Notes: generated by a model from the sequence alone, not told the origin. Counted from the stretch's first letter, positions 4,985-28,873 are shown. The stretch: DNA of 32,000 nucleotides from Candidatus Electrothrix sp. GW3-4 (GCF_037902255.1 NZ_CP147990.1:3750001-3782000); one strand, 5' to 3'. Program-made: numbers and translations.

Positions 4985-6799
4985 TTAGTTCCTCTCCATG
5001 CTCCAGGATTCTTGGTAAAATTTTTCCATCCTGGACCGATAATAAGCATGATTCTCCTGATCAAGCTCAGCAGCCTTTTTTTCAAGAGCAACCGCCTCTT
5101 CTCTCTTTCCATTGGCCCAAAGGGCCGTGGCCAAGGTATCAAGGACATGACCCTGCGCAGAAAAGCGGGCAGCTGAACGGGCCAAACCCAGCGCCCTCAC
5201 AGGATCACGGAGGCTGCGGTCTTTTGCCGTCAACAGCAACCAGGCCAGATTATTGGCAAGTTCAGAAGAAACAGGCAGAGAGCGTAAGGCCTTTTCATAG
5301 GCCTGGAGGGCGGCTCTTTCCTTGCCGCTCTCCAGCATCAGGTCGCCGAATAATTTAAGCCAACGGCTGTTTTCTGGCTCCTGTTCCAATTTTTCCTCAA
5401 GGATCGTCTTGACATAATGGAGCTGAGACTTGTCATAGAGTCCCTCTGTATCCAGCTGATGCAAGGACCAGGAGCCCACACCGATCAGGAAAAAGTACAC
5501 GGCAAGACTACAATAGACCTTCCAGTCGTGCAGTCGAATATTCCGTGGATTATTCTCACATCTTTCCAAAAAATCAATCCGCTCTCCGATCCCGAAATGA
5601 TGCCAGTTCTTCTTATGCCGGATATTACCGCTCATGACGGCGATTTTTTCAAAAGAACGAATCAGGGGAAAGCCCGTCTTTTGTGCCTTAAAGACATAGA
5701 GATCAGCCTGTCGCTCAAAATTTCTGCTAAAATAGCCAAATAAAAAGCGAAAATAGAGCAGCATCAAGAGAAAGAGGATTACTGTGGCAAAAACGGTCAG
5801 CAACTTATCCCCAGGAAACTGTGACCAGATCAACAGGCGATAAAACCAATCATTATTGAGCAAAAGGAGGTGGAGCGGTTCAGACACGGCCTCTGCAAAC
5901 AGACTGAAGCCGAGAAAGAGGAGCAGGTACAGGACCAGATGATATCGCTTCACATGGCCGATTTCATGGGCAAGAACCGCCTCCAGTTCTTCCTGATCCA
6001 GGGCAGAGAGCAGGGCAGGGGTCAGGAGGAGGTATCTGAACTTGGGTACCATCCCCATTACCGCGGCGGTCACCATTTTTCCTTCAAACAGGGGCCAGGA
6101 GAGTATATCAGCAGAAAACCTCTGGCTGCGGCAAAATCTTTCGATAGCATGGCGAACAGGCCCAGGCTCCAGAGGAACACATCCCCAAAGACGGCGTATT
6201 ATAGGGGGAAAGAGCAGGGTCATCAGCACAAGAAAGGGGAGAAAAAACAGCAGCTCTCCCCAGGGAGACCCTGCCCAGTTCTCCAGCTGGGTTATGGGGA
6301 GGGTATTCAGCAGATCGAAAAAAAAAGACAGGATCAGCCAGGGCAGGATAATGGTCAGATTTGTTCGGATATTATTGAGGATAAAATCGCTCAGAGCAAC
6401 ACCACTGTTGAAGAGACGCCGGTAGCTCGGCAGGGCCCGGTGCCATATCAGGATCAGAAAAACAAAAAAGAGCATCAACCCCAAGAGATTGGCTAACGTC
6501 GGCAGGGTATTATTAAAAGAAAGAGGCTGGGCGTAATACTTCAGATCAAAGGCAAAAAACGAGGTCACAAATACAACCGTTGCCAGCAGAGAGGCTCTCT
6601 TTTCCGCAGCAAAATATCGTTTGGAACTGATGTACCGGTGAGAGCTAAAAAGCTTCCTGGCAAGACGAGAAAAGGTAAGCAGAAGCAGGGCAAAGAGCGG
6701 CAGGGCGAACCAGGGAGCCAGGCGGGGCTGCTCCGGGGCAGTGGCGCTTGAAACGACAAAGATGACTGCCAAAAAATATATGAGATTATTATAGATCAT
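4985..6799 (-). CDS. M48-family zinc metallopeptidase, polytopic membrane protein with C-terminal TPR-like repeats
   Basis: 604-aa ORF with many hydrophobic helices. HExxH zinc motif in LAHEIGHVKRYH. The C-terminal ~130 aa have TPR-like repeats (ALQAYEKALR, LANNLAWLLL, LDTLATALWANGKREEAV). Confidence 0.8.
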   Translation of the reverse strand: MIYNNLIYFLAVIFVVSSATAPEQPRLAPWFALPLFALLLLTFSRLARKLFSSHRYISSKRYFAAEKRASLLATVVFVTSFFAFDLKYYAQPLSFNNTLPTLANLLGLMLFFVFLILIWHRALPSYRRLFNSGVALSDFILNNIRTNLTIILPWLILSFFFDLLNTLPITQLENWAGSPWGELLFFLPFLVLMTLLFPPIIRRLWGCVPLEPGPVRHAIERFCRSQRFSADILSWPLFEGKMVTAAVMGMVPKFRYLLLTPALLSALDQEELEAVLAHEIGHVKRYHLVLYLLLFLGFSLFAEAVSEPLHLLLLNNDWFYRLLIWSQFPGDKLLTVFATVILFLLMLLYFRFLFGYFSRNFERQADLYVFKAQKTGFPLIRSFEKIAVMSGNIRHKKNWHHFGIGERIDFLERCENNPRNIRLHDWKVYCSLAVYFFLIGVGSWSLHQLDTEGLYDKSQLHYVKTILEEKLEQEPENSRWLKLFGDLMLESGKERAALQAYEKALRSLPVSSELANNLAWLLLTAKDRSLRDPVRALGLARSAARFSAQGHVLDTLATALWANGKREEAVALEKKAAELDQENHAYYRSRMEKFYQESWSMERN

Positions 6800-9805: not shown

Positions 9806-10564
9806 ATGTCTTTCCTGCACAAAGGGATACAGGCCCTGCAAGAGCTGCTCTTTCCGGCCCGCTGTCTGGGCTGTGAGGAGCAGCTCGCCTCTTCCCGCCC
9901 TCCCCTGCTCTGTTCCGATTGCCTCAAGGGGGCAACCACGCTCCCTCCGCCCTTCTGCACCTGCTGCGGCACGCCTCTGCCCTTTGGCGACAACCATCTC
10001 TGCCTCAGCTGCCTGGAAGAACCCCTTGCTCTGACCAGGGCCCGCTCAAGCTTTCTCTACCAGGAACCCATCAGCACTCTGGTGCGCCAACTCAAATTTA
10101 ACGGCAACCTTACCGGTCTTGCCTCTCTTGCTGCCTTAGTACAAGAAACAGCAGCCTTTGCAGATCTCAATCCACCCGACCTTATCCTACCCGTTCCTCT
10201 CCATATCCAACGCCTGCGCGAACGGGGCTTCAACCAGTCCCTGCTTCTGGCCCGAGCCTGTTTTCCAGAATGGCAGCAACGTATTCGCTTTGACCTCCTG
10301 AAACGTCGGCGCCCCACCGTCCCGCAAACCCGACTCAGCGGTAAGGCCCGCCGCCATAACCTCCATAAGGCCTTCTGCGTCCAGCAACCTCATACTGTAC
10401 AAGGGAAACACATCCTGCTGGTGGATGATGTCCTTACCACCGGCTCCACTCTGCATGAATGCGCCAAGGTGCTCTTGGAGGCAGAAGCTACAGAGGTTGA
10501 GACCTTTACTGTGGCTAGGAGTGGGGCTGCTGGTACAGGTGGACGATCCGTATCGCAGCGATAA
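9806..10564 (+). CDS. comF: ComF-family protein (phosphoribosyltransferase fold with N-terminal Cys-rich zinc finger)
   Basis: 252 aa. Cys pairs CLGC..CSDC and CTCC..CLSC at the N-terminus. PRTase PRPP loop ILLVDDVLTTGSTL near the C-terminus. Confidence 0.8.
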   Translation: MSFLHKGIQALQELLFPARCLGCEEQLASSRPPLLCSDCLKGATTLPPPFCTCCGTPLPFGDNHLCLSCLEEPLALTRARSSFLYQEPISTLVRQLKFNGNLTGLASLAALVQETAAFADLNPPDLILPVPLHIQRLRERGFNQSLLLARACFPEWQQRIRFDLLKRRRPTVPQTRLSGKARRHNLHKAFCVQQPHTVQGKHILLVDDVLTTGSTLHECAKVLLEAEATEVETFTVARSGAAGTGGRSVSQR

Positions 10565-10614
10565 AATACAAAAAAAGCCGCAATGGTGGAATGAGGAATC
10601 CTGAAAAGATGCTG

Positions 10615-10770
10615 GGGTGTGGCAGGGGCAACCCTCTGTGTCCGCTCTGATTTTTCCCGGCAGGTGGGTTACACAGCAAAGGGCGACCGGCAGTCGCCCG
10701 GTTCCAGCCGGGGTGTTCGCCCTGGTCTATCTCGGTGGAAACATCAAGGGCAGACACACAGGTCTGCCCT
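10615..10770. repeat. Cluster of REP-like GC-rich hairpins (trailer copy)
   Basis: Contains hairpins gggcgaccggcagtcgccc (10681-10699) and gggcagacacacaggtctgccc (10748-10769). Same family as the elements at 9640-9716, 11741-11817 and 17521-17636. Confidence 0.6.
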
Positions 10771-10773
10771 AAC

Positions 10774-10809
10774 ATTAGAATACCCTCTTCATAGGGTAGG
10801 TGTTCCAAC
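10774..10809 (-). repeat. Solitary degenerate CRISPR repeat (orphan 1)
   Basis: attagaataccctcttcatagggtaggtgttccaac matches the array repeat at 31/36 positions. The internal hairpin taccct/agggta is intact. It lies 1008 bp away from the terminal repeat of array 1. Confidence 0.85.
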
Positions 10810-10878
10810 GGATCAGTTATCTTTTTCAGAAGCTACTCCGATAACTTATCAAGAGAAACATGCTTCTCAAAAAAAACA

Positions 10879-11331
10879 TTATACTAAAAATCTGAATCCG
10901 GCATTATCCAGGTCTGTTAATGCGGCTTCAAAACTTTCTATCATATTTTTCCCCCAAGCTTTCTTCAATACGGCCACAGTCCCGACAACTGACAACCCGA
11001 GTTCTTCCGCCGTCTGACGCGCCTTCAGATCGTCAAAAATCAAAAAATCCGCTTTACATTCTTCGGCCAGAATTATAGCCTCCGATTCACCGGGACCGAG
11101 GCTCATTCTTAATGCTTTAACCGCCAGCCTATTCTTGGCCTTTCGCCGTTCAATCCAGTCGGAGTTTTTTACCTCCTCCGCACCCGGCCTTCCTTTTCCT
11201 TTGATCACCACTTCGTGATAAACCGCTTCAGGAATCAGGATATTTTTAAAAATCTTCTCAAGAATAAACAGCTTATCAATCTTGCACAATCCGATAAGGC
11301 AGGATGAATCGGCAATGACTATTTTAGACAT
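10879..11331 (-). CDS. PIN-like (DUF3368-type) putative toxin
   Basis: 150 aa. The N-terminal IVIADSSCLIGL is typical of PIN-like nucleic-acid-binding proteins. Overlaps the upstream UPF0175-like gene by 8 nt, the classic pairing. Confidence 0.7.
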   Translation of the reverse strand: MSKIVIADSSCLIGLCKIDKLFILEKIFKNILIPEAVYHEVVIKGKGRPGAEEVKNSDWIERRKAKNRLAVKALRMSLGPGESEAIILAEECKADFLIFDDLKARQTAEELGLSVVGTVAVLKKAWGKNMIESFEAALTDLDNAGFRFLV

Positions 11332-11587
11332 CTGCCAATTTCCCCATATCGTTCTCCAGATCTTCTTTACTGTAATGAATAGGGGTCTTAACGGTTTTAT
11401 TCATTTCGAAAAAATCCCACTGACTCATTCCGCCTATTTCACAGGCTTTGCTTAATGAAATTTTTTTGTGCTCATAAAGGAATATCGCAACCATCTGTTT
11501 TACATCCCGACTTATATTGTCCAGATCCAACCCTGTCTGGGCAAGCACCATTTTCGGCAGTTCAAACTGTATATTCAAAGTGCTCAT
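11324..11587 (-). CDS. UPF0175-family putative antitoxin
   Basis: 87-aa ORF, translationally coupled to the PIN-like gene. Sequence style (AIFLYEHKKISLSKACEIGGMS) matches the UPF0175 HTH-like family as I recall it. Confidence 0.65.
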   Translation of the reverse strand: MSTLNIQFELPKMVLAQTGLDLDNISRDVKQMVAIFLYEHKKISLSKACEIGGMSQWDFFEMNKTVKTPIHYSKEDLENDMGKLADV

Positions 11588-11675
11588 CTTATTCCCACCT
11601 TTTTCCGAACAAAGAAGATTTAACGAAATGTCACCATTCAGGATATGGCAGCATACTTTTCAGGGGCGCAGAAAT

Positions 11676-11705
11676 ATTGTAACCGATATTTGCCGGGTTT
11701 GGCAA
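11676..11705 (-). promoter_or_regulatory. Candidate sigma70 promoter of the PIN/UPF0175 operon
   Basis: Minus strand reads TTGCCA-N18-TACAAT, about 90 nt upstream of the ATG at 11587. Confidence 0.45.
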
Positions 11706-11740
11706 CTGTGGAGGAGGAGGGGCTGAAAGGATTGCGGGGT

Positions 11741-11817
11741 GCCGTAGGGGCGACCGGCGGGTCGCCCGTTTTCAGCCGGGAGTGGTACGAGGGCAGACAC
11801 ATAGGTCTTGCCCCTAC
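11741..11817. repeat. REP-like hairpin pair forming the trailer of array 1
   Basis: Contains ggggcgaccggcgggtcgccc (11747-11767) and gggcagacacataggtcttgccc (11791-11813). Homologous to 10681-10769. Confidence 0.6.
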
Positions 11818-14800
11818 ACCATAATACCCTCTTCATAGGGTAGGTGTTCCGACCGCCAGCTTACAAAAAAGCAGCCAAACAAGGTCAGTCTTAATACCCT
11901 CTTCATAGGGTAGGTGTTCCGACGCGACAGTGGTCGTAAATCGAGGCGATTCCAGCCGTCTTAATACCCTCTTCATAGGGTAGGTGTTCCGACCTGTCCA
12001 CTCGGAGATAATGATTATAATCAGATGTCTTAATACCCTCTTCATAGGGTAGGTGTTCCGACGGCAACAACAACACGGCAGTAATGCAGAGAAAAATGTC
12101 TTAATACCCTCTTCATAGGGTAGGTGTTCCGACTGGTTTCTTCGTCGGCACTGCCCATGCAACGATGTCTTAATACCCTCTTCATAGGGTAGGTGTTCCG
12201 ACAAACCAGCAACCTTGTTCAGACGAAAATGTCGGTCTTAATACCCTCTTCATAGGGTAGGTGTTCCGACAAATGATAACGCTCGAGCGAGCGCGGATCT
12301 GCGTCTTAATACCCTCTTCATAGGGTAGGTGTTCCGACGGAGATGTTGCCAGAATATACAGAGATCAACGTCTTAATACCCTCTTCATAGGGTAGGTGTT
12401 CCGACGGGACTACGATCTACTATCTCAACAAAATCAGATCGTCTTAATACCCTCTTCATAGGGTAGGTGTTCCGACACCAGTCGCAATTGGAACGATTTA
12501 CAAAGAAGGTCTTAATACCCTCTTCATAGGGTAGGTGTTCCGACAAAAGGCGAGACTTACATGTGGACAAAGGCTGATGCGTCTTAATACCCTCTTCATA
12601 GGGTAGGTGTTCCGACAAAGCGGTTTTTTCTCCCCAAAGGCGTAGTTAAGCCTGTCTTAATACCCTCTTCATAGGGTAGGTGTTCCGACATGAAGCAGTA
12701 TCTCAACAACAGACACAAGCTCAGATTGTCTTAATACCCTCTTCATAGGGTAGGTGTTCCGACTGAAAAGTGGGTATAACACAAAGTGGGCTAAGTCTTA
12801 ATACCCTCTTCATAGGGTAGGTGTTCCGACGGCTGGCCTTGTTGGGATTCATTTTTTACCTAGGTCTTAATACCCTCTTCATAGGGTAGGTGTTCCGACG
12901 TCGTGGCAGCTCCAACCGGTCGTCGAACCAGCCGTCGTCTTAATACCCTCTTCATAGGGTAGGTGTTCCGACTATTGGTATGGTGCTTATAATAGCTTTG
13001 TTACCACTGTGTCTTAATACCCTCTTCATAGGGTAGGTGTTCCGACTCGGGCAATTGTGAAATAATATTTCTTCTAGCTGTCTTAATACCCTCTTCATAG
13101 GGTAGGTGTTCCGACTATAAGAAAAACATCCAAGAGAAGGGGTTTCAAAGTCTTAATACCCTCTTCATAGGGTAGGTGTTCCGACTATTTGAAGTTGGTT
13201 GATGAAGGTGGACAAGATGAGTCTTAATACCCTCTTCATAGGGTAGGTGTTCCGACACAAATGGATGCCTAAATCAAACCACAAACTTTGTCTTAATACC
13301 CTCTTCATAGGGTAGGTGTTCCGACTCAAATAAAAAAGATGGCGACCCCGTAAAAATGTCTTAATACCCTCTTCATAGGGTAGGTGTTCCGACACCATTT
13401 CTTATTCAGAAAATGGGATTTGGAAGTTGGTCTTAATACCCTCTTCATAGGGTAGGTGTTCCGACTATTATGAGCTACGTATTAGTTCATATAATTATGT
13501 CTTAATACCCTCTTCATAGGGTAGGTGTTCCGACCCAGCTTGCGATGCCAGGTGCCAAGCTGCCAGATGGTCTTAATACCCTCTTCATAGGGTAGGTGTT
13601 CCGACCTAGGACTTGACTTGTCGATTCATCATTTCATCAATGAGTCTTAATACCCTCTTCATAGGGTAGGTGTTCCGACGGCGGAGACTGTGATGAAGTC
13701 CCCACTGGGGACGCGTCTTAATACCCTCTTCATAGGGTAGGTGTTCCGACCATTATGGCTACGGAAGCCGATCAAGCAGTTGGTCTTAATACCCTCTTCA
13801 TAGGGTAGGTGTTCCGACATACTCCATCCTGTTCCAATGGGAATTGCCTTAGGTCTTAATACCCTCTTCATAGGGTAGGTGTTCCGACATTACTCCCTCT
13901 TGCTTCTGCACAGGCTCAATGTCCGTCTTAATACCCTCTTCATAGGGTAGGTGTTCCGACGTCATACTGCCGTCAGAATAGACCCAGTAGGCAACTGTCT
14001 TAATACCCTCTTCATAGGGTAGGTGTTCCGACAGAACGTTACGCTAACATGGCAGTAGAACTTGTCTTAATACCCTCTTCATAGGGTAGGTGTTCCGACT
14101 ATGCTGTATTTTCTGGGCTTATCAACCGAAAAGTCTTAATACCCTCTTCATAGGGTAGGTGTTCCGACGTCGGAAATTTTTGGATGTCAAAACACATCCA
14201 GTCAGTCTTAATACCCTCTTCATAGGGTAGGTGTTCCGACAAATTCAACAAATCAGGGGGGATATTATGACTTTGTCTTAATACCCTCTTCATAGGGTAG
14301 GTGTTCCGACTATCTACCGACATCCTAGTGATGGTATGAGGATTGTCTTAATACCCTCTTCATAGGGTAGGTGTTCCGACACAGAAAAACAATTAAAAAA
14401 GTGTGCGGTTGCAATACGTCTTAATACCCTCTTCATAGGGTAGGTGTTCCGACCGGTAACTATTTGAGAAAATCCGTTTATAATTACGTCTTAATACCCT
14501 CTTCATAGGGTAGGTGTTCCGACCTCTCGACGTGTTGTCGGGATGCAGACATTTCGTCTTAATACCCTCTTCATAGGGTAGGTGTTCCGACGCCGTTGGT
14601 GGTAAAAACAACTTCAGGACAGTTTGTCTTAATACCCTCTTCATAGGGTAGGTGTTCCGACTATCAAGAACGGTCCCAATTGGGGCAATTTCACAATGTC
14701 TTAATACCCTCTTCATAGGGTAGGTGTTCCGACTACTGGCTTTTGTCATGTATTCCCAACTCCCAAGTCTTAATACCCTCTTCATAGGGTAGGTGTTCCG

Positions 14801-14941
14801 ACGGCAATGCTCTTGCCCAACAACAGCGACAACAGGTCTTAATACCCTCTTCATAGGGTAGGTGTTCCGACAATACTGAAGAGGGTGATGTGAGTATTAA
14901 TATTTGTCTTAATACCCTCTTCATAGGGTAGGTGTTCCGAC
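11818..14941 (-). CRISPR. CRISPR array 1: 45 repeats of 36 bp, 44 spacers
   Basis: - **Repeats:** hand count of gtcttaataccctcttcatagggtaggtgttccgac on the plus strand. The low-coordinate terminal repeat is degenerate (accataa in place of gtcttaa).
- **Spacers:** 31-38 nt, all different within this array.
- **Why minus strand:** the conserved AT-rich leader is at the high-coordinate end and repeat decay is at the low end.
- **Repeat structure:** on the minus strand the repeat is GTCGGAACACC-TACCCT-ATGAAG-AGGGTA-TTAAGAC. That is a hairpin followed by ATTAAGAC, resembling the ATTGAAAS 8-nt crRNA handle. Confidence 0.97.
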
Positions 14942-15235
14942 AGCGGCCTTGCTTTAAACAATACTGAATTCAGTAAATTAAGCAAGTAAAAAAACGACAT
15001 GGAATCGGGTTTTGAAAGTTGTGAAAATTGAACCGGCATTACAACCGCCGATACAGGAAAATGCACGACATCGTGACTCTTTTGTCATGATCGGTATTAA
15101 AATTTGAATTTTAAGCCATTTTCTAAAACTTTTCATCGGTAAATTCAGGGTAGTAGATACTGATTTTTAATCATGACGAATAATGACAAAGAGAAAAAAT
15201 AGCCTGAAAAAATTCCATGTCCGACCGTTTTTCCC
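14942..15235 (-). promoter_or_regulatory. Leader of array 1 (294 bp)
   Basis: AT-rich and 288/294 identical to 28580-28873. On the minus strand there is a candidate promoter, TTGCTT-N16-TATTGT, ending ~20 nt before the first repeat. A perfect 14-bp palindrome, TACTGAATTCAGTA (14962-14975), lies between the two boxes. Confidence 0.75.
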
Positions 15236-15242
15236 CTTCCTC

Positions 15243-15581
15243 TCAGTATGCACAAACCACCTGCTCTATCATTTCCGCCAACCATTGATTCACGGTTTTT
15301 CCGCTCGCAAAGGCCCGAGCAACAACCTCGGCGTGCAGGCCGGGGTGAATCTGCACAAGCAATTCGCCTGAATACTCCTTACGCGGCTCAACCCCGTCCT
15401 CCTGACAGCTATCCAAAAAGGTATCCAGGACCTTCTTGCCTTCCCTGAGTAATCCACCGATATCCTGGGAATAAAAAACAACCTTGCTGCTCAGACCAGC
15501 AAACTCACCGCAAAACATTCCGTGTTTCGGATCGTAGCTGATAACCGCCCGATAGCCATCAATATCGACAATATTCATCAT
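15243..15581 (-). CDS. HicB-like antitoxin-fold protein with C-terminal RHH-type DNA-binding tail; no HicA partner
   Basis: 112 aa. The N-terminal DGYRAVISYDPKHGMFCGEF and the C-terminal VQIHPGLHAEVVARAFASGKTVNQWLAEMIEQ resemble HicB-family antitoxins. No small HicA-like ORF is adjacent. Confidence 0.65.
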   Translation of the reverse strand: MMNIVDIDGYRAVISYDPKHGMFCGEFAGLSSKVVFYSQDIGGLLREGKKVLDTFLDSCQEDGVEPRKEYSGELLVQIHPGLHAEVVARAFASGKTVNQWLAEMIEQVVCAY

Positions 15582-15650: not shown

Positions 15651-16484
15651 TCACGCATTGGGCAGCGATTCGCCCAGAAAAATCACCTGTCGACTACTGC
15701 GGACCACCTGCGTTTTTTGGGGATGCAGAGAAAGCCCCAACTCCTCCAGCCGTTCCCCGGCAAAGGCTTCCGCTGCCAGGGCCTTTTTTTTGGTGTCGGC
15801 AAAGAGAAGGAAGTCATCGGCAAAACGGACAAAAGGAATATTTGCCCTCACCAAGGCTGTGTCGAACTGGTGCAGATAGAGATTACAAAACAGGGGCGAG
15901 AGGATGGAGCCCTGACAGACACCGCGACGATTACGGAGCAAACTGCAATGGTGCGCCCCCTGAACAAGCCATTGCTCAATCAGCTTCATGGCAGCACCAT
16001 CCCGGATAAAGCCTTTGAGCACCTTCAGTAACTGTTTATGGGGGATGGAATCAAAAAATTTCGTAATATCCGCATCCACCAGCCAGGCCTGACCAATCCG
16101 TATTCGTTCCCTGGTCTTGGCCAGAGCGGCCTGTACACTGCGGCCCGGTCGGTACCCATAAGAATCATTATGAAACAAGGCCTCGGCCTGAGGTTCCAGG
16201 ACCGTAAGCAGAGCTCGCTGCACCAGTTTGTCCCGAAGAAAATGGGCTGAGATGATCCGTTGCCCACCATCGGGCTTTGCCATAGGAAACTGGCGCAGGG
16301 GCAACGGCCTATAGGTACCGGCCAGGATATGTTCCCGGCATTCGAGAGTATGGCGGAGCAGGTGGTGCTGCAGCTCGTCTCGGGAGACACCCGGCGCCCA
16401 GGGCGTGTGTTCCCGCCGCAGGCGGCGCCAGGCTACGTCCAACACCTTCGGCGTCATGGCCTGTTCAAGCAGGGGAGTCGTCAT
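15651..16484 (-). CDS. Stand-alone reverse transcriptase (group II intron-like, fingers-palm only)
   Basis: 277 aa. RT blocks: KPDGGQRIIS (RT1), SYGYRPGRSVQAAL (RT3), LVDADITKFFDSIPH (RT4), GVCQGSILSPLFCNLYL and RFADDFLLF (RT5, YxDD as FADD), LSLHPQKTQVV (RT6/7). It ends ~55 aa after FADD, so no thumb/X domain. The ATG at 16484 overlaps the cas1 stop by 20 nt; an alternative ATG is at 16457. Confidence 0.88.
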   Translation of the reverse strand: MTTPLLEQAMTPKVLDVAWRRLRREHTPWAPGVSRDELQHHLLRHTLECREHILAGTYRPLPLRQFPMAKPDGGQRIISAHFLRDKLVQRALLTVLEPQAEALFHNDSYGYRPGRSVQAALAKTRERIRIGQAWLVDADITKFFDSIPHKQLLKVLKGFIRDGAAMKLIEQWLVQGAHHCSLLRNRRGVCQGSILSPLFCNLYLHQFDTALVRANIPFVRFADDFLLFADTKKKALAAEAFAGERLEELGLSLHPQKTQVVRSSRQVIFLGESLPNA

Positions 16485-17496
16485 AGTTCAGCCCTCTCTT
16501 TTCTCCTTGTTGCTTCATAAAGGCTCCGAACCGGGCCGTCTGCCCGTTGAGCAGTTCTCTGAGCGGAGTTGTACTCAGTTCTTCATCCTCCTCCTCTTCT
16601 CCGCTCTGATCCGGTCTCGGCCATTGTTCGCGATATTCGGCCCAGGCCGTAAAGAAGAGCGGGCGGGTTGTCTTGCTCAGGCGACAGCCCTCATCTTTTC
16701 TGTAATAAAATGGTGCCTTATCCAAGGCCGTGTCATGAAGCCAATTCAGGACAAAATGATCCACCCCGGCACGGAACAGCTCGCTGAAGTCCAGGGCCAG
16801 GGATTCCCGGCCCGGATAATCCTGATGAAGAAAGCCCAGCGAGGGATCAAAACCAGCTCGCAGCACAGCCTGGCGGACCTCGGAAAGGAGCAGGGTATAG
16901 CCGAGGGAGAGCAGGGAGTTGACCGGGTCACGGGGCGGTCTGCGGTTACGACCGGTGAAGCGCAGCTCTTCCGGGAGATATTGCGCCAACAGGGCGAACC
17001 ATGCCTGGGCCACATGCCCCTCGACTCCCAGTAAGGTTTGCAGCGAATCTACAGCATTAACCTGCTCCTGGGCTCTCAGCACTTTATCTGCGAATTGCGC
17101 ACAAGCGGGTGCAGCCTCCGGCCACAGGCCGACAAAAGCATGGAGCGGCAAGACATACCTGCTCATTTTTTCCGAGACAAACCACTTTGCCGTTTCCAGA
17201 CGCGTTGTCGAATCCGCTGCCAGCTGATGTTGCAACCTGCGCAACGGCAAACGTACAGCCAGGCCGCTGCCCAGCACAGCAGCCGGTCTTCTCCGGTCCG
17301 GGAGAATAACAACCGGAACTCCGGCTTCACCTAACACCCGCCATACCGTGGTTTCCACCAGAGGGTTGCCGTAAATCACCACCTGCTCCAAAGGATTCAA
17401 AGGAATCTGCTGGGGCTTTCTCCCCTTCTCTTGCAGCTCCAGTACACCCTCCTTATAGCGCAGGGTGCTTTTTCGACGATCAATAACAAAAATCAT
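16465..17496 (-). CDS. cas1: CRISPR-associated integrase Cas1
   Basis: The ORF is 16465..17856. The start is assigned to the ATG at 17496 (MIFVIDRRKSTLRYKEG), preceded by aggaga. Cas1 motifs: GVEGHVAQAWF, RNRRPPRDPVNSLLSLGYTLL, GFDPSLGFLHQDYPGRESLALDFSELFR. The upstream 120 codons run through REP hairpins. Confidence 0.92.
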   Translation of the reverse strand: MIFVIDRRKSTLRYKEGVLELQEKGRKPQQIPLNPLEQVVIYGNPLVETTVWRVLGEAGVPVVILPDRRRPAAVLGSGLAVRLPLRRLQHQLAADSTTRLETAKWFVSEKMSRYVLPLHAFVGLWPEAAPACAQFADKVLRAQEQVNAVDSLQTLLGVEGHVAQAWFALLAQYLPEELRFTGRNRRPPRDPVNSLLSLGYTLLLSEVRQAVLRAGFDPSLGFLHQDYPGRESLALDFSELFRAGVDHFVLNWLHDTALDKAPFYYRKDEGCRLSKTTRPLFFTAWAEYREQWPRPDQSGEEEEDEELSTTPLRELLNGQTARFGAFMKQQGEKRGLNYDDSPA

Positions 17497-17520
17497 ACAT
17501 GTTCTCCTGTGGTGCTGTAG

Positions 17521-17636
17521 AGGCAGGCCCCTGTTCCTGCCCGAAATATCGAGGTGATCATCAGGGCGAACACAGGGGTTCGCCCCTACGAAACGATAAT
17601 GATTCCGGGTAGGGACACGGCATGCCGTGTCCCTAC
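17521..17636. repeat. Three GC-rich hairpins between the cas2-like gene and cas1
   Basis: The three are ggcagg-N8-cctgcc (17522-17541), gggcgaac-acaggg-gttcgccc (17564-17585), and the perfect 28-nt palindrome gtagggacacggcatgccgtgtccctac (17609-17636), which overlaps the cas2-like stop codon. Confidence 0.7.
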
Positions 17637-18013
17637 GCCCTCTCTTTCCCGCCAAACAGACGACGGAAAAACCGCCCTGCTCTTGATGGCGTTTGTTTCG
17701 GAACAGACCCTCCATACAGACCGTGCAATTTGTCGTTCTGCCTTCCAGCGGTCCAGACAGCACCGGGATAAGGAACAGGATAAAGGCGTACATCGTCTTC
17801 CTTATCATTAACCCGAGCCAGCACCCCAGCCACCACCTCCTCCAAATCGATGACATCGGCTTTCAAGAGAAAGACCGACCTCTGCACAGAAACTCCCCGT
17901 TTCTTGCAGAAATAATGGAGCCTGCGCAGCCTTTTTTCATGCCGAACATCATAGGCAAGCAGGTACCATTGTGCCTCTCCTCGCTTTCCTTTGCTTTGCC
18001 GTGTCGTATCCAT
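17633..18013 (-). CDS. cas2: Second Cas2-like protein (126 aa, C-terminal extension)
   Basis: The pattern WYLLAYDVRHEKRLRRLHYFCKKRGVSVQRSVFLLK ... DDVRLYPVP follows the Cas2 ferredoxin-fold pattern (YD, Q-SVF, D-vR-Y). A ~40-aa basic tail extends beyond the core. Confidence 0.7.
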   Translation of the reverse strand: MDTTRQSKGKRGEAQWYLLAYDVRHEKRLRRLHYFCKKRGVSVQRSVFLLKADVIDLEEVVAGVLARVNDKEDDVRLYPVPYPGAVWTAGRQNDKLHGLYGGSVPKQTPSRAGRFFRRLFGGKERA

Positions 18014-18036: not shown

Positions 18037-18070
18037 GGAGCAGGGGCACGGCATGCCGTGCCCCTGCTCC
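18037..18070. repeat. Perfect 34-nt palindrome between the two cas2 genes
   Basis: ggagcaggggcacggcatgccgtgcccctgctcc. Its core GGGGCACGGCATGCCGTGCCCC is shared with the elements at 17609-17636 and 19061-19090. Confidence 0.75.
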
Positions 18071-18094: not shown

Positions 18095-18379
18095 CTACCC
18101 CATATACAAAATCGGCACTTTGAAGCCGATACCGCTACACTTGGTCAAACCACGGGCCTTCCTGCTCCCGTCCAAAGGAGCCAGCAGGAGCATATCCTGT
18201 TCCTCATGAAGCAGGTCAGTAAGCTGAAGAAACAGCTCCGACGCCTCAGCCTGGGTCAGCTTGCACTCAAAAACAGAGTACTGGGCCGACAACTTCCATT
18301 TCTTCAAAACCCGGAACAGTTTGCGACGACGTTTATTATCTGTGATATCATAGGCAATCACCATCGCTCTCCGTTTCAT
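18095..18379 (-). CDS. cas2: CRISPR-associated endoribonuclease Cas2
   Basis: 94 aa. MVIAYDITDNKRRRKLFRVLKKWKLSAQYSVFECKL is the canonical Cas2 N-terminus. Confidence 0.85.
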   Translation of the reverse strand: MKRRAMVIAYDITDNKRRRKLFRVLKKWKLSAQYSVFECKLTQAEASELFLQLTDLLHEEQDMLLLAPLDGSRKARGLTKCSGIGFKVPILYMG

Positions 18380-19060: not shown

Positions 19061-19090
19061 CGTAGGGACACGGCGCGCCGTGCCCCTACG
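19061..19090. repeat. 30-nt near-perfect palindrome (REP-like)
   Basis: cgtagggacacggcgcgccgtgcccctacg with one mismatch. It lies between the membrane-protein gene and the 188-aa gene. Confidence 0.7.
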
Positions 19091-20214: not shown

Positions 20215-20284
20215 CAGACAACCCTCCAGAGTTGAATAAGAATCTTGAAGGGTGACTATGCCGCAAAAAGGAAAACCCTGCCTG

Positions 20285-20302
20285 TCCGGCAAGGTTGCGG
20301 GA
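20285..20302 (-). promoter_or_regulatory. Inverted-repeat motif (site 2 of 3)
   Basis: tccggcaaggttgcggga, ~79 nt upstream of the ATG at 20214. Confidence 0.4.
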
Positions 20303-20442
20303 TGGAATAACGGGAGAGGGAGGGAAGAAAGGAGGGGGCTGTCAGATCCCCTTTGCTGTGATGAGGGTCTCTAGGCGCGACCGGCGGTAGCCCGGATTTT
20401 TCATGGGCATAAAAAAAAGGCGATCACAAGGACCGCCTCTTC

Positions 20443-20476
20443 GCCTTAAACCCCTCTTCATAGGGTAGGTGTTGAC
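20443..20476 (-). repeat. Solitary degenerate CRISPR repeat (orphan 2)
   Basis: gccttaaacccctcttcatagggtaggtgtt--gac compared with the array repeat has 3 substitutions and a 2-nt deletion. On the minus strand a weak hairpin plus T8 (about 20445-20411) follows it. Confidence 0.75.
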
Positions 20477-20492
20477 AATTTTAACGGCCTGT

Positions 20493-20864
20493 TTACACGG
20501 AATTTATTTTCGCAAGCGTTGCAATGGGTTTTAAACGGGAAATCTTTTTTGCTTCCGGGCTGTTCATGGCGTGCCAAAGATCCCAATCCTGCTGGAGTCC
20601 CAACCAGAAGTCCGCTGACATACCAAGCACCTGAGATAGCCGAAGGGCAGTGGATGGAGTGATTGAACGTCGCTCCTTAAGGATATCAATAAGAGAAGAG
20701 TATGAAACATCCAAACGTCGAGCAAATTCTTTTCTTGTTATACCCAGGGGTTTGATAAACTCCTCGGCAAGCATCTCGCCGGGATGCGTCGGAGGGCGTT
20801 GCCGGGGCAGGCGCCGACCGGCTGGTCTTTCAGTGGTAGTCAGTGATTTCGACTTCGCATGCAT
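20493..20864 (-). CDS. higA: HigA-family HTH antitoxin
   Basis: The ORF is 20493..21083. The start is assigned to the ATG at 20864 (MHAKSKS), which overlaps the higB end by 35 nt. HigA-type block: THPGEMLAEEFIKPLGITRKEFARRLDVSYSSLIDILKERRSITPSTALRLSQVLGMSADFWLGLQ. Confidence 0.8.
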   Translation of the reverse strand: MHAKSKSLTTTERPAGRRLPRQRPPTHPGEMLAEEFIKPLGITRKEFARRLDVSYSSLIDILKERRSITPSTALRLSQVLGMSADFWLGLQQDWDLWHAMNSPEAKKISRLKPIATLAKINSV

Positions 20865-21123
20865 GGCTGTTCTCCCATTGAAAGCAGATTCGATACTGCT
20901 GATTAATTCGTATGCTGTATTGATCATCCCGGTCACCTCTGAGGCGTTCCAGGCGGTTTCCAGGAGGAATCCTGAGTTCACCGATTTCTCTGATTCGGTT
21001 GATTTGATCCAGCTTTCGACGGGCCACAGGCCAAATGGACTTCGGACAGCATTTTCTTGCAGCTCGGGATGCTGAGCCGTCAAAAATATCTTCTGTACCC
21101 GCGTTTTTGAACGACTGTATCAT
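20830..21123 (-). CDS. higB: HigB toxin (RelE/ParE superfamily, 'plasmid maintenance system killer' type)
   Basis: 97 aa. MIQSFKNAGTEDIF ... LRIPPGNRLERLRGDRDDQYSIRINQQYRICF is typical of HigB. A perfect TATAAT box lies on the minus strand at 21135-21130, just upstream. Confidence 0.85.
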   Translation of the reverse strand: MIQSFKNAGTEDIFDGSASRAARKCCPKSIWPVARRKLDQINRIREIGELRIPPGNRLERLRGDRDDQYSIRINQQYRICFQWENSHACEVEITDYH

Positions 21124-21235: not shown

Positions 21236-21271
21236 ATCTTAATACCCTCTTCATAGGGTAGGTGTTTCAAT
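21236..21271 (-). repeat. Solitary degenerate CRISPR repeat (orphan 3)
   Basis: atcttaataccctcttcatagggtaggtgtttcaat matches the array repeat at 32/36 positions, with the hairpin intact. Confidence 0.85.
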
Positions 21272-21299: not shown

Positions 21300-21605
21300 T
21301 CAAACTCTTTCTCGCCAGTAATCCGGTTGACGGTGCAGATGCATCACTGCGATGACCTGAATGACAGTTTCTTTGACTCGATAGATGAGTCCGTACGGGA
21401 ATCGGTGAATAATGTAGCGTCTGATACCACTGTCTTTATCAAGCAAAGGCCAGATCTCAGGCGAGTCCCTCACTGTCTCAATGGCCTGATCCACCTCATT
21501 GAGAAACTTTATTCCGAGATTGGTCGCCTGCCTCTCGTACCAGGTGCGAGAATATTCCAGCTCAGGATAGACATCCGGGTGCAGGTCAACGCTGTACTTT
21601 GGCAT
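21300..21605 (-). CDS. RelE/ParE-family toxin
   Basis: The ORF is 21300..21665. The start is assigned to the ATG at 21605 (MPKYSVDLHPDV). The C-terminal RRYIIHRFPYGLIYRVKETVIQVIAVMHLHRQPDYW is ParE/RelE-like. Overlaps the upstream antitoxin by 20 nt. Confidence 0.7.
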   Translation of the reverse strand: MPKYSVDLHPDVYPELEYSRTWYERQATNLGIKFLNEVDQAIETVRDSPEIWPLLDKDSGIRRYIIHRFPYGLIYRVKETVIQVIAVMHLHRQPDYWRERV

Positions 21606-21831
21606 TTCGATACAGGCGTTTTTTGACTTCCTCCCACGGGGTACAGTTAACAGCACCGGAGTCAATATCGTTCAACCGTCTGTCAATCTCCTTTTGCCAC
21701 GCATGCCAAATTTCCCTATCTAGGGGAGCTTCAAGACTGGCAAGCAGGGCCTCTGCTATGTGTGCTCGTTCGGCTTCTGGTCGTTTAAGGGCACTATCCA
21801 GTATTTTCTCCGCAACCGTTATGCTCATCAT
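21586..21831 (-). CDS. Putative addiction-module antitoxin (81 aa)
   Basis: Contains ERAHIAEALLASLE ... WHAWQKEIDRRLNDIDSG ... WEEVKKRL, the pattern of the small 'addiction module component' antitoxins. Coupled to the toxin gene. Confidence 0.65.
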   Translation of the reverse strand: MMSITVAEKILDSALKRPEAERAHIAEALLASLEAPLDREIWHAWQKEIDRRLNDIDSGAVNCTPWEEVKKRLYRNAKVQR

Positions 21832-21912: not shown

Positions 21913-24900
21913 GCTGTAATACCCTCTTCATAGGGTAGGTGTTCCGACAAAGAGCAAGTTGTCAAAGCGCCCCCGTTCTCGGTCTTAATACCCTCTTCAT
22001 AGGGTAGGTGTTCCGACCCACAGAGACAAGCTCAGAGACAAGCTCAGAAAAGTCTTAATACCCTCTTCATAGGGTAGGTGTTCCGACAGACCTGCTGGTG
22101 TAGGAATAACGAGTCAGATCTGTCTTAATACCCTCTTCATAGGGTAGGTGTTCCGACAATGGTTTCGCCCCGTAAGTAATCATAAGGGCGAGACTAAAAC
22201 AACCGTCTTAATACCCTCTTCATAGGGTAGGTGTTCCGACTTACACGTTTTATGTTACGTAGGCTTGCCAATGGTGTCTTAATACCCTCTTCATAGGATA
22301 GGTGTTCCGACGGAGAGAAGGTGCCAGAAGACTATAACTCGTCGGAGGTCTTAATACCCTCTTCATAGGGTAGGTGTTCCGACTTAGCTTGATATTACAA
22401 TTCATCACAACTTTATTAGGTCTTAATACCCTCTTCATAGGGTAGGTGTTCCGACTGAATTCAATTCAGGAGAGCAGTATTTTTATGTCTTAATACCCTC
22501 TTCATAGGGTAGGTGTTCCGACTTAGCTTGATATTACAATTCATCACAACTTTATTAGGTCTTAATACCCTCTTCATAGGGTAGGTGTTCCGACTGAATT
22601 CAATTCAGGAGAGCAGTATTTTTATGTCTTAATACCCTCTTCATAGGGTAGGTGTTCCGACAACAATAATTCCCTCAACCGACCCCCTCGCTTGTCTTAA
22701 TACCCTCTTCATAGGGTAGGTGTTCCGACAAGGGAGATGTTATGAGTGATCGTTAGAAATGGTCTTAATACCCTCTTCATAGGGTAGGTGTTCCGACTGT
22801 TGAATTATGGAGAATACGTTATCTAGTGGGCGTCTTAATACCCTCTTCATAGGGTAGGTGTTCCGACGAAAGGGATGCTTTGAAACGCTTATTACAGGAA
22901 GTCTTAATACCCTCTTCATAGGGTAGGTGTTCCGACAACAAAGGAGTTACTTATGTCATCACTGAACTGAGTCTTAATACCCTCTTCATAGGGTAGGTGT
23001 TCCGACTGGAGCTAAGACCAAAAGGGAGCACAAGCTTATTGTCTTAATACCCTCTTCATAGGGTAGGTGTTCCGACTTATTTGAGACACCTGAATGCAAA
23101 GACCCAGAATGTCTTAATACCCTCTTCATAGGGTAGGTGTTCCGACTGTTTCCAGATGACAACAGAGCATCCTTCTTTGAGTCTTAATACCCTCTTCATA
23201 GGGTAGGTGTTCCGACTGGAGCTAAGACCAAAAGGGAGCACAAGCTTATTGTCTTAATACCCTCTTCATAGGGTAGGTGTTCCGACCTCACAGCGAAAGA
23301 AAGAGGTAAATTTGCAAAGGTCTTAATACCCTCTTCATAGGGTAGGTGTTCCGACAAAAAAGATATTTGCTAAGAACATAATAGTCAAAGCGTCTTAATA
23401 CCCTCTTCATAGGGTAGGTGTTCCGACGCATTCGGTTGTTAACTAATCGCTTGCCTAAAACTCTGTCTTAATACCCTCTTCATAGGGTAGGTGTTCCGAC
23501 TGAAGAGGTTGAACAGGCTCGCCCTGTTCACGGTCTTAATACCCTCTTCATAGGGTAGGTGTTCCGACTATGTCAAAAATGTGAAACAACATGGAAACCG
23601 TCTTAATACCCTCTTCATAGGGTAGGTGTTCCGACCGATTGACGTTTCCAGTGCAACTGTTTTTTGTCTTAATACCCTCTTCATAGGGTAGGTGTTCCGA
23701 CGACACCTCCTCATCGAGGTAGAAGGAGTCTTTTGTCTTAATACCCTCTTCATAGGGTAGGTGTTCCGACGAAAGAAAGTCCCAAATGGGAACAACTGTG
23801 GATGTCTTAATACCCTCTTCATAGGGTAGGTGTTCCGACAGGGGAGGCTGGGAAACGGGTCGCTTTACAGAGGTCTTAATACCCTCTTCATAGGGTAGGT
23901 GTTCCGACAGATCAATCGCGTACAAGGAACAACATCTGCCGTGGCGTCTTAATACCCTCTTCATAGGGTAGGTGTTCCGACTGGTTTACACGCCAGTTGA
24001 GGTTGATGGATCAGTCTTAATACCCTCTTCATAGGGTAGGTGTTCCGACGAGGAACTGCCATATCTAAACGGATGGGGAGTTCGGTCTTAATACCCTCTT
24101 CATAGGGTAGGTGTTCCGACCGCTGTCGCAGTTCAACCAAAACCGCATTGCCGTCTTAATACCCTCTTCATAGGGTAGGTGTTCCGACAAGTAGAAACCG
24201 ATGTAGCAGAAGGAAACTACCCGGTCTTAATACCCTCTTCATAGGGTAGGTGTTCCGACAGGGCTCTTGCTGGGGTCCAGCACATTCCTGTACTTGTCTT
24301 AATACCCTCTTCATAGGGTAGGTGTTCCGACTCTGCCGTCGCCTGTGACAGAAGAAACCGAGAAGTCTTAATACCCTCTTCATAGGGTAGGTGTTCCGAC
24401 GTGAACAAAGGCGGGAAAGGTCATAAAGACGATGTCTTAATACCCTCTTCATAGGGTAGGTGTTCCGACGTTTATATCCCATTTATGGGATGCTATTATC
24501 ACGTCTTAATACCCTCTTCATAGGGTAGGTGTTCCGACGCATATCAATGATCCTGTGGGCAAAGAGATGGCGTCTTAATACCCTCTTCATAGGGTAGGTG
24601 TTCCGACCGAATTATTACTACAATTGGCAAATAAAGAGGGTGTCTTAATACCCTCTTCATAGGGTAGGTGTTCCGACAGGTGAGCTGTACTATACAGATT
24701 GCTTGCCTACTGTCTTAATACCCTCTTCATAGGGTAGGTGTTCCGACAGGGGAATCTCGTGTAGCAGGATGAACTATTGGTCTTAATACCCTCTTCATAG
24801 GGTAGGTGTTCCGACCCAGAGGTCGTGCAGATGGGAGAGCTGGTTGATGTCTTAATACCCTCTTCATAGGGTAGGTGTTCCGACGGCTTGCGGCTCATGC

Positions 24901-27900: not shown

Positions 27901-28579
27901 TAACTATTTGAGAAGTCTTAATACCCTCTTCATAGGGTAGGTGTTCCGACACAAACACCTGCTACTATGGGGACCTAAACCAGTCTTAATACCCTCTTCA
28001 TAGGGTAGGTGTTCCGACGGGGATACAAGGGATAATAGATCCCCCAAAACAGTCTTAATACCCTCTTCATAGGGTAGGTGTTCCGACAACCAATAATGCC
28101 CATATAGATGAATCATCTGTCTTAATACCCTCTTCATAGGGTAGGTGTTCCGACACAGGTGTAGGGCTGGCTATTGCCGTGCCTGGCTTCGTCTTAATAC
28201 CCTCTTCATAGGGTAGGTGTTCCGACGGAAAAATGATTTCCCATTCGTGGGACACGATTATCCGTCTTAATACCCTCTTCATAGGGTAGGTGTTCCGACA
28301 ACTATGAGGTTCCTGCCCAACCACTGCCATCTCGGTCTTAATACCCTCTTCATAGGGTAGGTGTTCCGACAGGAAAATCCATGAAAAAATCACACATCGT
28401 CTTAGTCTTAATACCCTCTTCATAGGGTAGGTGTTCCGACGGAGCAGGCTTGTAGCCTGCTCCATGCTTGTCCGTCTTAATACCCTCTTCATAGGGTAGG
28501 TGTTCCGACCTCTTAACATCTGGCTTGGTGTATGTCTGGGGGCGTCTTAATACCCTCTTCATAGGGTAGGTGTTCCGAC
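21913..28579 (-). CRISPR. CRISPR array 2: 96 repeats of 36 bp, 95 spacers (about 75 distinct)
   Basis: Same repeat as array 1, counted by hand. Spacers are 29-37 nt, plus one 47-nt outlier at 22158-22204. One repeat carries a G-to-A variant (22276-22311, ...cataggatagg...). The low-coordinate terminal repeat is degenerate (gctgtaa). The leader is at the high-coordinate end. Confidence 0.97.
24050..26279. repeat. Perfect tandem duplication of a 1115-bp block (16 spacer-repeat units) inside array 2
   Basis: Units from spacer gaggaactgccatatc... to spacer attgcgggggcgaaaacc... occur at 24050-25164 and again at 25165-26279. ORF-track translations of the two copies are identical (24168..24482 = 25283..25597, and so on). 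Confidence 0.9.
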
Positions 28580-28873
28580 AGCGGCCTTTCTTTAAACAAT
28601 ACTGAATTCAGTAAATTAAGCAAGTAAAAAAACGACATGGAATCGGGTTTTGAAAGTTGTGAAAATTGAACCGACATTATAAACGTCGATACAGGAAAAT
28701 GCACGACATCGTGACTCTTTTGTCATGATCGGTATTAAAATTTGAATTTTAAGCCATTTTCTAAAACTTTTCATCGGTAAATTCAGGGCAGTAGATACTG
28801 ATTTTTAATCATGACGAATAATGACAAAGAGAAAAAATAGCCTGAAAAAATTCCATGTCCGACCGTTTTTCCC
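28580..28873 (-). promoter_or_regulatory. Leader of array 2 (294 bp)
   Basis: Differs from 14942-15235 by 6 substitutions and no indel. Carries the same TTGCTT-N16-TATTGT boxes and the TACTGAATTCAGTA palindrome (28600-28613). Confidence 0.75.

Follow-up and report, generated by a model that had tools for sequence, protein, structure and literature searches.

In a 32,000-nt stretch of the genome of Candidatus Electrothrix sp. GW3-4 (GCF_037902255.1, NZ_CP147990.1:3750001-3782000), hereafter the window, an intact-looking, predicted type II toxin–antitoxin (TA) operon lies between two whole repeats at the trailer end of a type III-associated CRISPR array, array 1. Comparison with related genomes shows that such repeat-bounded slots exist in empty and occupied states, that the cassette carries its own copy of the array trailer, that slot contents turn over and are reordered, and that one homology breakpoint falls inside the repeat. 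To explain these states, we favor recombination inside the repeat core, with the cassette retained as an addiction module, as the probable mechanism. CRISPR arrays are regarded as stores of 30-40-nt spacers; whole TA operons in spacer slots offer a tangible case, open to testing, in which CRISPR repeats exchange cargo the size of genes, with the array ends behaving like a cassette platform for addiction modules.

The 36-nt repeat GTCTTAATACCCTCTTCATAGGGTAGGTGTTCCGAC is common to both arrays of the window (coordinates of all features in Table 1). Each array has at its right end a 300-nt block, 98% identical in the two, that looks like a leader. Read on the minus strand, the repeat contains an ACCCT-N6-AGGGT hairpin followed by ATTAAGAC at its end, and an Rfam scan of 10300-12100 returned CRISPR-DR32 matches that were sub-threshold only, all on the minus strand. 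The leaders at the right ends, the repeat ending in ATTAAGAC and the minus-strand Rfam matches together place the CRISPR RNA (crRNA) on the minus strand, so that the left ends of the arrays are their trailers. The operon unit is bounded by a solitary repeat on the left and the terminal repeat of array 1 on the right, and the 1008 bp between them lies outside the 29-47-nt range of the spacers (n = 135). Both repeats have a perfect 28-nt core, the orientation of the array and a position at the end opposite the leader. Their mismatches cluster mainly in the 5 nt facing the trailer, and the far end of the solitary repeat reads CCAAC, vs CCGAC in the array repeats. All elements that the original prediction had described here, i.e. 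the two repeats, the hairpins beside them, the TA genes and the promoter, were found in their places.

The operon (10879-11587, minus strand) runs in the crRNA direction from its own promoter and, judged from its sequence and a structure model, would encode a UPF0175 antitoxin and a PIN-fold RNase toxin, as had been proposed. While Pfam identified the antitoxin family, the toxin escaped sequence searches: its match to Pfam DUF3368 was weak and below threshold (21.8 bits vs 27.3 cut-off), phmmer against the PDB gave no match, and a profile search returned only spurious summed pentatricopeptide-repeat matches. NCBIfam likewise gave no match for the toxin and only a spurious sub-threshold match for UPF0175. 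The PIN assignment was therefore settled by fold comparison. The AlphaFold (AF2) model has a pLDDT (predicted local distance difference test) of 95, and its best Foldseek matches are PIN/VapC structures (5h4g, template modeling score 0.66). Across 24 homologues, residues D8, E40, E82/E84 and D100/D101 show little or no variation, and the acidic residues are conserved among the 163 homologues found. The toxin matches WGN25_16635 of Ca. Electrothrix sp. GW3-4 with 100% identity. The two genes overlap by 8 nt in the same direction with the antitoxin first, and an AGGTGG ribosome-binding site lies upstream of the antitoxin gene. In gene order, antitoxin family and PIN fold, the pair corresponds to type II UPF0175/PIN-DUF3368 (COG2886-COG2405 type) operons. 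An independent Logan unitig matches 10780-11851 exactly, and the junction between operon and repeat is spanned in six other assemblies, which argues that the arrangement at the array end is not an assembly artefact.

Species-representative genomes were scanned for the repeat core. This gave 27 loci (these and loci from other sources are designated by L numbers), all but L004 from Electrothrix or Desulfobulbaceae genomes; L004 was binned as a Robiginitalea metagenome-assembled genome, yet it carries an Electrothrix-type locus. The loci were surveyed by eye and not exhaustively, and 30 terminal or solitary repeats were aligned with their trailer-side flanks. A scan of metagenomes added two loci only, both informative. 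The ComF-like gene to the left of the operon marks the orthologous site. At locus L037, a 10.9-kb metagenome contig, ComF (78% amino acid identity to the window protein) stands in the window orientation and is followed by hairpin A, the linker, hairpin B, the terminal repeat, 4 spacers, the leader and cas genes, with no TA genes and no solitary repeat. A second empty site, L015 of E. laxa, consists of ComF, an insertion of the insertion sequence (IS) IS110, a long trailer and a 22-repeat array, again without TA genes. Compared with these empty sites, the window has an extra 1044 bp, made up of the TA operon, a trailer copy and a repeat. The left 'trailer plus repeat' of the window is the resident end of the ComF-adjacent array.

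Occupied sites were found as well. The operon is present in six other assemblies (E. aestuarii L030, L004, L016, L032, L035 and L038) with 85-90% protein identity. A repeat follows the toxin stop codon in every operon contig that reaches that far (L038 ends first), and operon then repeat is the order in all six Electrothrix-type assemblies whose contig reaches the operon 3' end. In E. aestuarii this repeat is a perfect 36/36 match, and its counterparts in L004, L016, L032 and L035 are degenerate. In the complete genome of E. aestuarii, the promoter side of the operon comprises a leader, 31 perfect repeats and 197 nt that include the promoter known from the window and a degraded hairpin A, followed by the UPF0175 and PIN genes; past the toxin come a perfect repeat 7 nt after the stop codon, a 32-nt spacer, a split terminal repeat, a hairpin of the repetitive extragenic palindromic (REP) type, the long trailer and ComF (69% amino acid identity to the window copy). 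There the operon fills the second spacer slot from the trailer, as a 915-bp unit with a 36/36 repeat on either side. At L004 the array consists of a single repeat beside the leader; there, and at L016 too, the long trailer adjoins the operon on its promoter side and the toxin is followed by a repeat. L032 resembles the window on its left side, with different neighboring genes. At L035 degenerate repeats bracket the operon, with a BrnA remnant upstream of it and a trailer, a promoter and MNT/HepT downstream, and at L038 the array is followed by a HigBA cassette, a repeat and the operon with its trailer copy. A trailer copy on the promoter side recurs with the operon in L004, L016 and L038. Three smaller features of these sites are recorded here. 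In E. aestuarii, ComF is inverted relative to the window, and the terminal repeat is split by a ~100-nt insert (L030 ~6531-6660, CP159373) resembling a miniature inverted-repeat transposable element (MITE), with terminal inverted repeats TAAGTTTTAGGGTT...AACCCTAAATTTTAGA. L004 and L016 lack the 53-nt stretch that lies between the solitary repeat and the toxin stop codon of the window (10810-10862) and contains the inverted repeat GTTATC...GATAAC. At L011 3496-3600 (strain YB6) and L004 294-329 the array has only one repeat, placed between trailer and leader, with the adjacent TA cassette kept.

The trailer copies to the left of the two repeats bear on how the operon arrived. In the crRNA direction a GTAG-type REP hairpin follows nearly every terminal or solitary repeat, often with a T-run, and the hairpins fall into several classes. 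In the window, each hairpin opens with GTAG or GTTAG right after the repeat on the crRNA strand and is a GC-rich imperfect palindrome, as expected of a REP. Both hairpins of the resident copy are terminator-like on the minus strand (predicted fold energy -52 kcal/mol); neither hairpin of the cassette-borne copy has a T-tail on that strand. The original prediction held the two flanks to be recognizably the same sequence, a ~130-bp 'trailer + last repeat' unit duplicated around the operon. Two homologous copies do flank the operon, and their likeness is beyond chance: local alignment of the flanks without the repeats scored 41.4, vs 19.8 ± 3.0 (maximum 33.6) for dinucleotide shuffles, and the highest score elsewhere in the window was 31.8. 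The likeness is nevertheless moderate, with 104/138 aligned columns (75%) identical and 86 gap columns, and it begins further left than proposed, at ~10600 and ~11717, ending at the repeat ends 10809 and 11853. The segments next to and including the repeats (10747-10809 vs 11790-11853) are almost gapless and ~89% identical. As a global alignment with MAFFT misplaced hairpin A, the local alignment and the other genomes were used instead.

What did not stand is the duplication at insertion. The left flank is closest to those at L013b, L004a and L011b and the right flank to those at L007 and L013a, the window copies being less alike. The resident trailer together with its adjoining repeat is 90% (145/161) identical to the empty site L037 (trailer alone, 91%, 116/127), while the cassette-borne copy is 81% identical to the copy at L038 and 75% to the left window copy. 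A fresh duplication or a target-site duplication was rejected, each copy being nearer to trailers of other species than to its window partner; from sequence comparison, the two appear to be old paralogues, one resident and the other cassette-borne. A long trailer, consisting of hairpin A, GGTTCCAGCCGGGGTGTT, ~110 nt, GTTCGCCCTGG..GGTGGAAACATCAA, hairpin B and the repeat, is conserved in E. aarhusensis, E. laxa and others. Both window copies are different internal-deletion derivatives of a trailer ~110-150 nt longer: the cassette-borne copy is without ~150 nt of the long form, and the resident copy has a 56-nt insert (~10633-10688) without counterpart in L037. A further copy of hairpin B occurs in E. 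marina (L016 ~1380-1480), followed by a barely recognizable repeat, CTACATTACAACATCCTCTTTCACGGATAAGG, in which one apparent compensatory change keeps the stem of the Cas6 hairpin paired; this suggests a series of decaying terminal modules.

The divergence of the flanks also bears on transposition, either by a REP-associated tyrosine transposase (RAYT) acting on the flanking REP hairpins or by an IS-type enzyme targeting repeats. Directly oriented GTAG REP hairpins do stand on both sides of the operon, and IS and MITE insertions are found at such array ends (IS110 in E. laxa and the ~100-nt element in the E. aestuarii terminal repeat). However, the cassette holds the two TA genes only, with no transposase, terminal inverted repeats or short target-site duplication, and the flanking homology extends over ~140-210 bp that is diverged (75%) and of different lineages, unlike a target duplication. 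RAYTs are, to our knowledge, not known to move cargo genes. We therefore consider transposition extremely unlikely.

The window contains two further cassettes, HigB/HigA and a ParE-like toxin with a TIGR02574 antitoxin, at the trailer of array 2. The outer flank of this trailer is marked by CCCGCAACCTTGCCGGACAGGCAGGG, and the contents of the slots at the marker differ between three genomes: ParE-like, then HigBA in the window; BrnTA, then VapBC in E. marina (L029); and a single slot with MNT/HepT in Desulfobulbaceae S24.Bin023 (L007). Elsewhere, VapBC and HigBA cassettes have array on both sides (L022), a PIN_3 pair with BrnT/A remnants lies between a solitary repeat and a one-repeat array (strain YB6), and YhgA/Rpn-like genes adjoin repeats in L013 and L016. 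The order of cassettes varies as well, being array, HigBA, PIN at L038 and leader, repeat, PIN, repeat, HigB remnant at L004. Variable content and order at a conserved platform is a feature of integron cassettes, and it is seen here. The annotated slot contents are all toxin systems; they belong to eight families, all co-oriented with the crRNA (two-sided binomial ~0.008, on the assumption that the families are independent). GTTGC-N19-20-TAYAAT, the promoter motif, has one occurrence in the window, vs 0.05 expected, and recurs in nine other loci, downstream of a repeat and REP and before PIN, VapBC and MNT/HepT operons. Its recurrence before three families points to a scaffold of repeat, REP hairpin and promoter that is common to them. 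Another motif, ACCCTGCCTGTCCGGCAAGGTTGCGGG, forms the outer end of the array-2-type trailer in three genomes (window 20275-20310, L007 5755-5785 and L029 ~5270-5300), with a partial copy at 29065-29100 inside the 3' end of the Cas_NE0113 open reading frame (ORF; 29024-30142), and CCCGCAAYC also precedes the shared promoter module.

These data speak to whether the arrangement is a coincidence, in which the array end decayed in the ordinary way down to a stray repeat, a TA operon unconnected with it landed nearby and the likeness of the flanks is that of generic REPs. The hairpins are indeed REP-type (GTAG plus GC-rich palindrome), with other REP-like palindromes elsewhere in the window, and TA operons are mobile; outside Electrothrix, a homologue of 69% identity stands between hemC and hemD without any CRISPR nearby. 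Yet hairpin A has 4 copies in the 32 kb, all just before a terminal or solitary repeat, and hairpin B has 2, both next to repeats; the linker and the element order are conserved across Electrothrix species, and clean empty sites exist. In 6/6 Electrothrix-type assemblies that reach the operon 3' end, moreover, a repeat follows, and three window cassettes, and eight families overall, share one arrangement and orientation, which bears out the earlier argument that coincidental decay is less likely. The coincidence reading is largely refuted, and we regard it as very unlikely.

The ends of the two repeats suggest how the cassette entered. Where the window is aligned with L004/L016, homology ceases in the first 5-9 nt of the solitary repeat. 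This repeat combines the resident-type trailer end with the cassette-type CCAAC end, and the terminal repeat is its reciprocal, with the cassette trailer on one side and the array-type CCGAC end on the other. Such mixed ends are the expected outcome of a crossover inside the 28-nt core. Cassettes would thus enter and leave by homologous recombination in the identical 28-nt core, aided by the adjacent trailer and REP homology. The crossover would pair the terminal repeat and trailer of the resident end with the repeat and trailer of a cassette, either in a Campbell-type insertion of a unit of repeat, TA operon and trailer or in an exchange between arrays, and the reverse crossover would restore the empty site. 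That the repeats recombine in this genome is indicated by the duplicated spacers, which number 20/135 and include one 1115-bp tandem block of 16 spacers. This block is a perfect tandem duplication of 16 spacer-repeat units in array 2 (24011-26240), the spacers at 24050-25097 recurring at 25165-26212; four smaller spacer duplications start at 22384/22523, 22456/22595, 23007/23217 and 27460/27666.

Persistence of the cassette may have a simple basis. Deletions between repeats would erode the array while new spacers enter at the leader end only, and a deletion taking out the TA cassette would kill the cell, so that addiction modules would survive and come to lie at the trailer end. Deletion of spacers across arrays and addition at the leader are described in one study (10.1101/2024.02.20.581079). 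Since deletions occur across arrays, additions occur at the leader and loss would be lethal, undeletable units are expected to persist at the trailer end, which provides a simple population-genetic reason why addiction modules collect there.

Several points weigh against recombination with addiction as the full account. The mechanism is deduced from end states only: neither excised circles nor recombination intermediates nor polymorphism within a population were observed. With 28-36 nt, the repeat is near the minimum length for RecA-dependent recombination. The arrival of the first operon between repeats is not accounted for by homologous recombination, and neither are the uniform orientation of eight families and the promoter module shared by three. 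The toxin-side ends of the cassettes vary, with a gap of 7, 13 or 69 nt between stop codon and repeat and an extra ORF in L022. A TA operon at the trailer end guards only a small fraction of possible deletions, those spanning it, and the addiction argument accounts for the persistence of the cassette, not for a benefit. In addition, the solitary repeats in L005, L012, L019, L020 and L021 have neighbors without Pfam match and no recognizable TA genes; the association of solitary repeats with TA operons is therefore not shown to be universal. As a separate candidate, a collapsed neighboring array was rejected as the general origin of solitary repeats, because it needs precise loss of the whole leader before eight operons, each ending ~70 nt or less from a repeat.

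Because first entry, uniform orientation and the shared promoter are left unexplained by recombination, two other explanations stay alive. The first is oversized spacer capture, in which Cas1-Cas2, with the adjacent reverse transcriptase (RT), integrated operon DNA at a repeat and duplicated the repeat, later acquisitions pushing the cassette trailerward. This would account for the first entry of DNA between repeats. It agrees with the E. aestuarii cassette between two perfect repeats in the second slot from the trailer and with the L022 cassettes flanked by array on both sides, and Cas1, two Cas2 genes and an RT adjoin array 1. Against it, the unit measures 915-1044 bp vs 29-47 nt for spacers, and we know of no integrase of the Cas1 family that inserts kilobase DNA. 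A cassette with a promoter and its own trailer copy is not RNA-derived, and the turnover of slots and the shuffled order require a second mechanism anyway. Furthermore, RT-Cas1 systems take up spacers in either orientation (PMC5576922), which is at odds with the single orientation of all eight families. Altogether, we judge spacer capture unlikely.

The second is functional coupling. The flanking repeats may serve as sense-strand Cas6 sites in the TA transcript, whereby Cas6 would process or stabilize the TA mRNA and the cell would come to depend on CRISPR-Cas, a safeguard akin to CreTA. It fits either origin model. Because the eight families are co-oriented, the repeat is always in sense in the 3' untranslated region (UTR), 1-69 nt past the last stop codon; Cas6 is encoded in the window, and the right-hand hairpins without T-tails leave room for read-through from the array into the operon. 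The ACCCT-N6-AGGGT core of the Cas6 hairpin is, besides, the best-kept part of degenerate solitary repeats, but most repeats were found via a core search, so this conservation is partly an ascertainment effect. Moreover, solitary repeats range from perfect to barely recognizable (the E. marina copy; the decayed L016a copy), which fits relics better than selected sites, and it is not obvious how cutting a bicistronic type II TA mRNA in its 3' UTR would activate the toxin. Nor is any spacer or pseudo-spacer complementary to the operon: spacers and repeat-adjacent sequences compared with it gave only chance-level matches of 11-13 nt, with no sign of CreTA-like guidance. We consider such coupling doubtful, while the locus provides a natural system for asking whether TA modules stabilize CRISPR loci or are wired to Cas6.

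In the literature searched on TA modules with CRISPR arrays, solitary repeats, genes with CRISPR repeats on both sides, interrupted arrays and Electrothrix CRISPR, no type II TA operons in repeat-bounded slots were found, and a 2025 review of links between TA and CRISPR has no passage on TA operons inside arrays. The closest parallel is the sedentary chromosomal integron. As there, TA operons with their own promoters lie among short direct recombination repeats in a long array, one repeat follows each gene unit, and content and order vary between relatives. In chromosomal integrons, addiction by TA cassettes counteracts repeat-mediated deletions, as stated in two reports (10.1101/2022.08.03.502626, PMC11551772). 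In contrast to integrons, the recombination sites here are CRISPR repeats with REP hairpins rather than attC or attI, the cargo seen is TA-like only, the cassettes sit at the old array end and recombination is probably homologous. The Pfam scans, which covered only part of the 132 ORFs of the window, found no integrase such as IntI. In CreTA and CrePA, a toxin beside a CRISPR-Cas locus has CRISPR repeats, ectopic or degenerate, in physical linkage with it, as here, and a safeguard role was proposed (PMC9458426; 10.1101/2024.01.05.574328). The CreTA antitoxin, however, is a crRNA-like RNA whose pseudo-spacer guides type I Cascade to repression of the toxin promoter, whereas here the operon is of the protein-protein type II in a type III context, with repeats flanking the whole 0.9-kb operon and no complementary pseudo-spacer.

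TA modules in the same genomic neighborhood as arrays, with a proposed functional link, are also known, namely type I TA by C. difficile arrays and HicAB with Cas13a (PMC5961336, PMC13448076); these lie outside repeat-bounded slots, and no empty and occupied states or cassette turnover at repeats are described for them. Insertions of IS and MITE elements resemble the cassettes in that foreign DNA interrupts a repeat or spacer (MITE-like in E. aestuarii, IS110 in E. laxa), but they split repeats or spacers and bring transposase ends, whereas each TA cassette lies between whole repeats and lacks the features of a transposon. Finally, the REP hairpin that starts right after nearly every terminal or solitary repeat, often with a T-run, recalls structured elements after the last repeat that limit unwanted RNA from an extra repeat, the 'extraneous crRNA' (PMC12080349, PMC13187072). 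Unlike our loci, those elements are leader or trailer hairpins of type II-C and type VI arrays, with no genes between repeats.

A wider interpretation is that the CRISPR repeats and the REP-and-promoter module are attachment sites of a true cassette system, in which a dedicated activity (Cas1-Cas2/RT or another repeat-recognizing enzyme) would take up, excise and shuffle TA operons at array trailers and the repeat in sense would place each cassette under Cas6 control. We put this forward tentatively, as a possibility with the odds against it; if true, it would mean integron-like gene capture by CRISPR arrays, tying addiction modules to an immune locus. For annotation, the arrangement means that array finders will split or truncate such arrays and label solitary repeats as orphans.

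Table 1. Features of the array 1 trailer end and related elements of the window (positions in the 32,000-nt stretch)
Feature	Position	Strand	Remarks
ComF-like phosphoribosyltransferase gene	9806..10564	+	Pfam DZR_2, Pribosyltran; marks orthologous site
Trailer copy, resident	10600..10773	-	hairpin A 10681-10699, linker, 30-nt segment, hairpin B 10747-10770
Solitary repeat, 31/36	10774..10809	-	central 28 nt perfect; trailer-side end like terminal repeat
3' UTR of operon	10810..10878	-	from alignment with relatives and predicted fold
Toxin gene, predicted 150-aa PIN-fold protein, DUF3368 family	10879..11331	-	fold comparison and conserved acidic residues
Antitoxin gene, 87-aa UPF0175 protein	11324..11587	-	Pfam PF03683, E = 1.8e-15, 56.8 bits vs 27.9 cut-off
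Putative operon promoter, (G)TTGCCA-N18-TACAAT	11676..11706 (hexamers 11705-11676)	-	10/12 vs sigma-70 consensus
Trailer copy, cassette-borne	11717..11817	-	hairpin A 11747-11767, linker, hairpin B 11790-11814
Terminal repeat of array 1, 33/36	11818..11853	-	degenerate in trailer-side 5 nt
Array 1	11818-14946	- (crRNA strand)	46 repeats including terminal repeat
Array 1 leader	14947-15205	-	98% identical to array-2 leader
Array-2 slot, HigB/HigA	20493-21123		between degenerate repeat ~20443-20480 and repeat 21236-21271
Array-2 slot, ParE-like toxin and TIGR02574 antitoxin	21300-21831		between repeat 21236-21271 and terminal repeat 21913-21948
Array 2	21913-28584		same repeat as array 1

Array 1 is neighbored by HicB, RT, Cas1 and two Cas2 genes, and array 2 by Cas_NE0113, an MNT/HepT pair and Cas6. 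The ORFs of Cas1 (16465-17856) and RT (15651-16484), both on the minus strand, overlap by 20 nt with Cas1 upstream of RT; in the usual RT-Cas1 fusions the order is the opposite. In E. marina L029 the RT is truncated and Cas1 apparently missing. The two Cas2 genes stand side by side upstream of Cas1 (17633-18013 and 18095-18379, minus). A HicB-family antitoxin gene (15243-15581, minus) directly follows the array-1 leader, with no obvious HicA partner of at least 60 aa, and this arrangement is kept in E. marina (L029 6277-6615). The MNT/HepT pair (30245-30866, minus) lies between Cas6 and Cas_NE0113, and the same family occupies repeat-bounded trailer slots of L007 and L035, downstream of the common promoter module.

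A third class of REP-like palindrome, GTAGGGACACGGCATGCCGTGTCCCTAC, occurs in intergenic positions of the cas cluster (17609-17637, 18040-18068 and 19062-19090), and L029 has a dense run of GTAG hairpins similar to this class at 5460-5700. Outside the bacterial genomes, a scan of viral contigs gave one, AT-rich, in which 22 nt agree exactly with the repeat core, Cas6 hairpin included (L002 2047-2068; IMG/VR IMGVR_UViG_3300030108_003946). This match stands directly after a 71-aa ORF, oriented as in the TA-repeat units, with neighboring ORFs that have no Pfam match, and could be a virus-borne solitary repeat.

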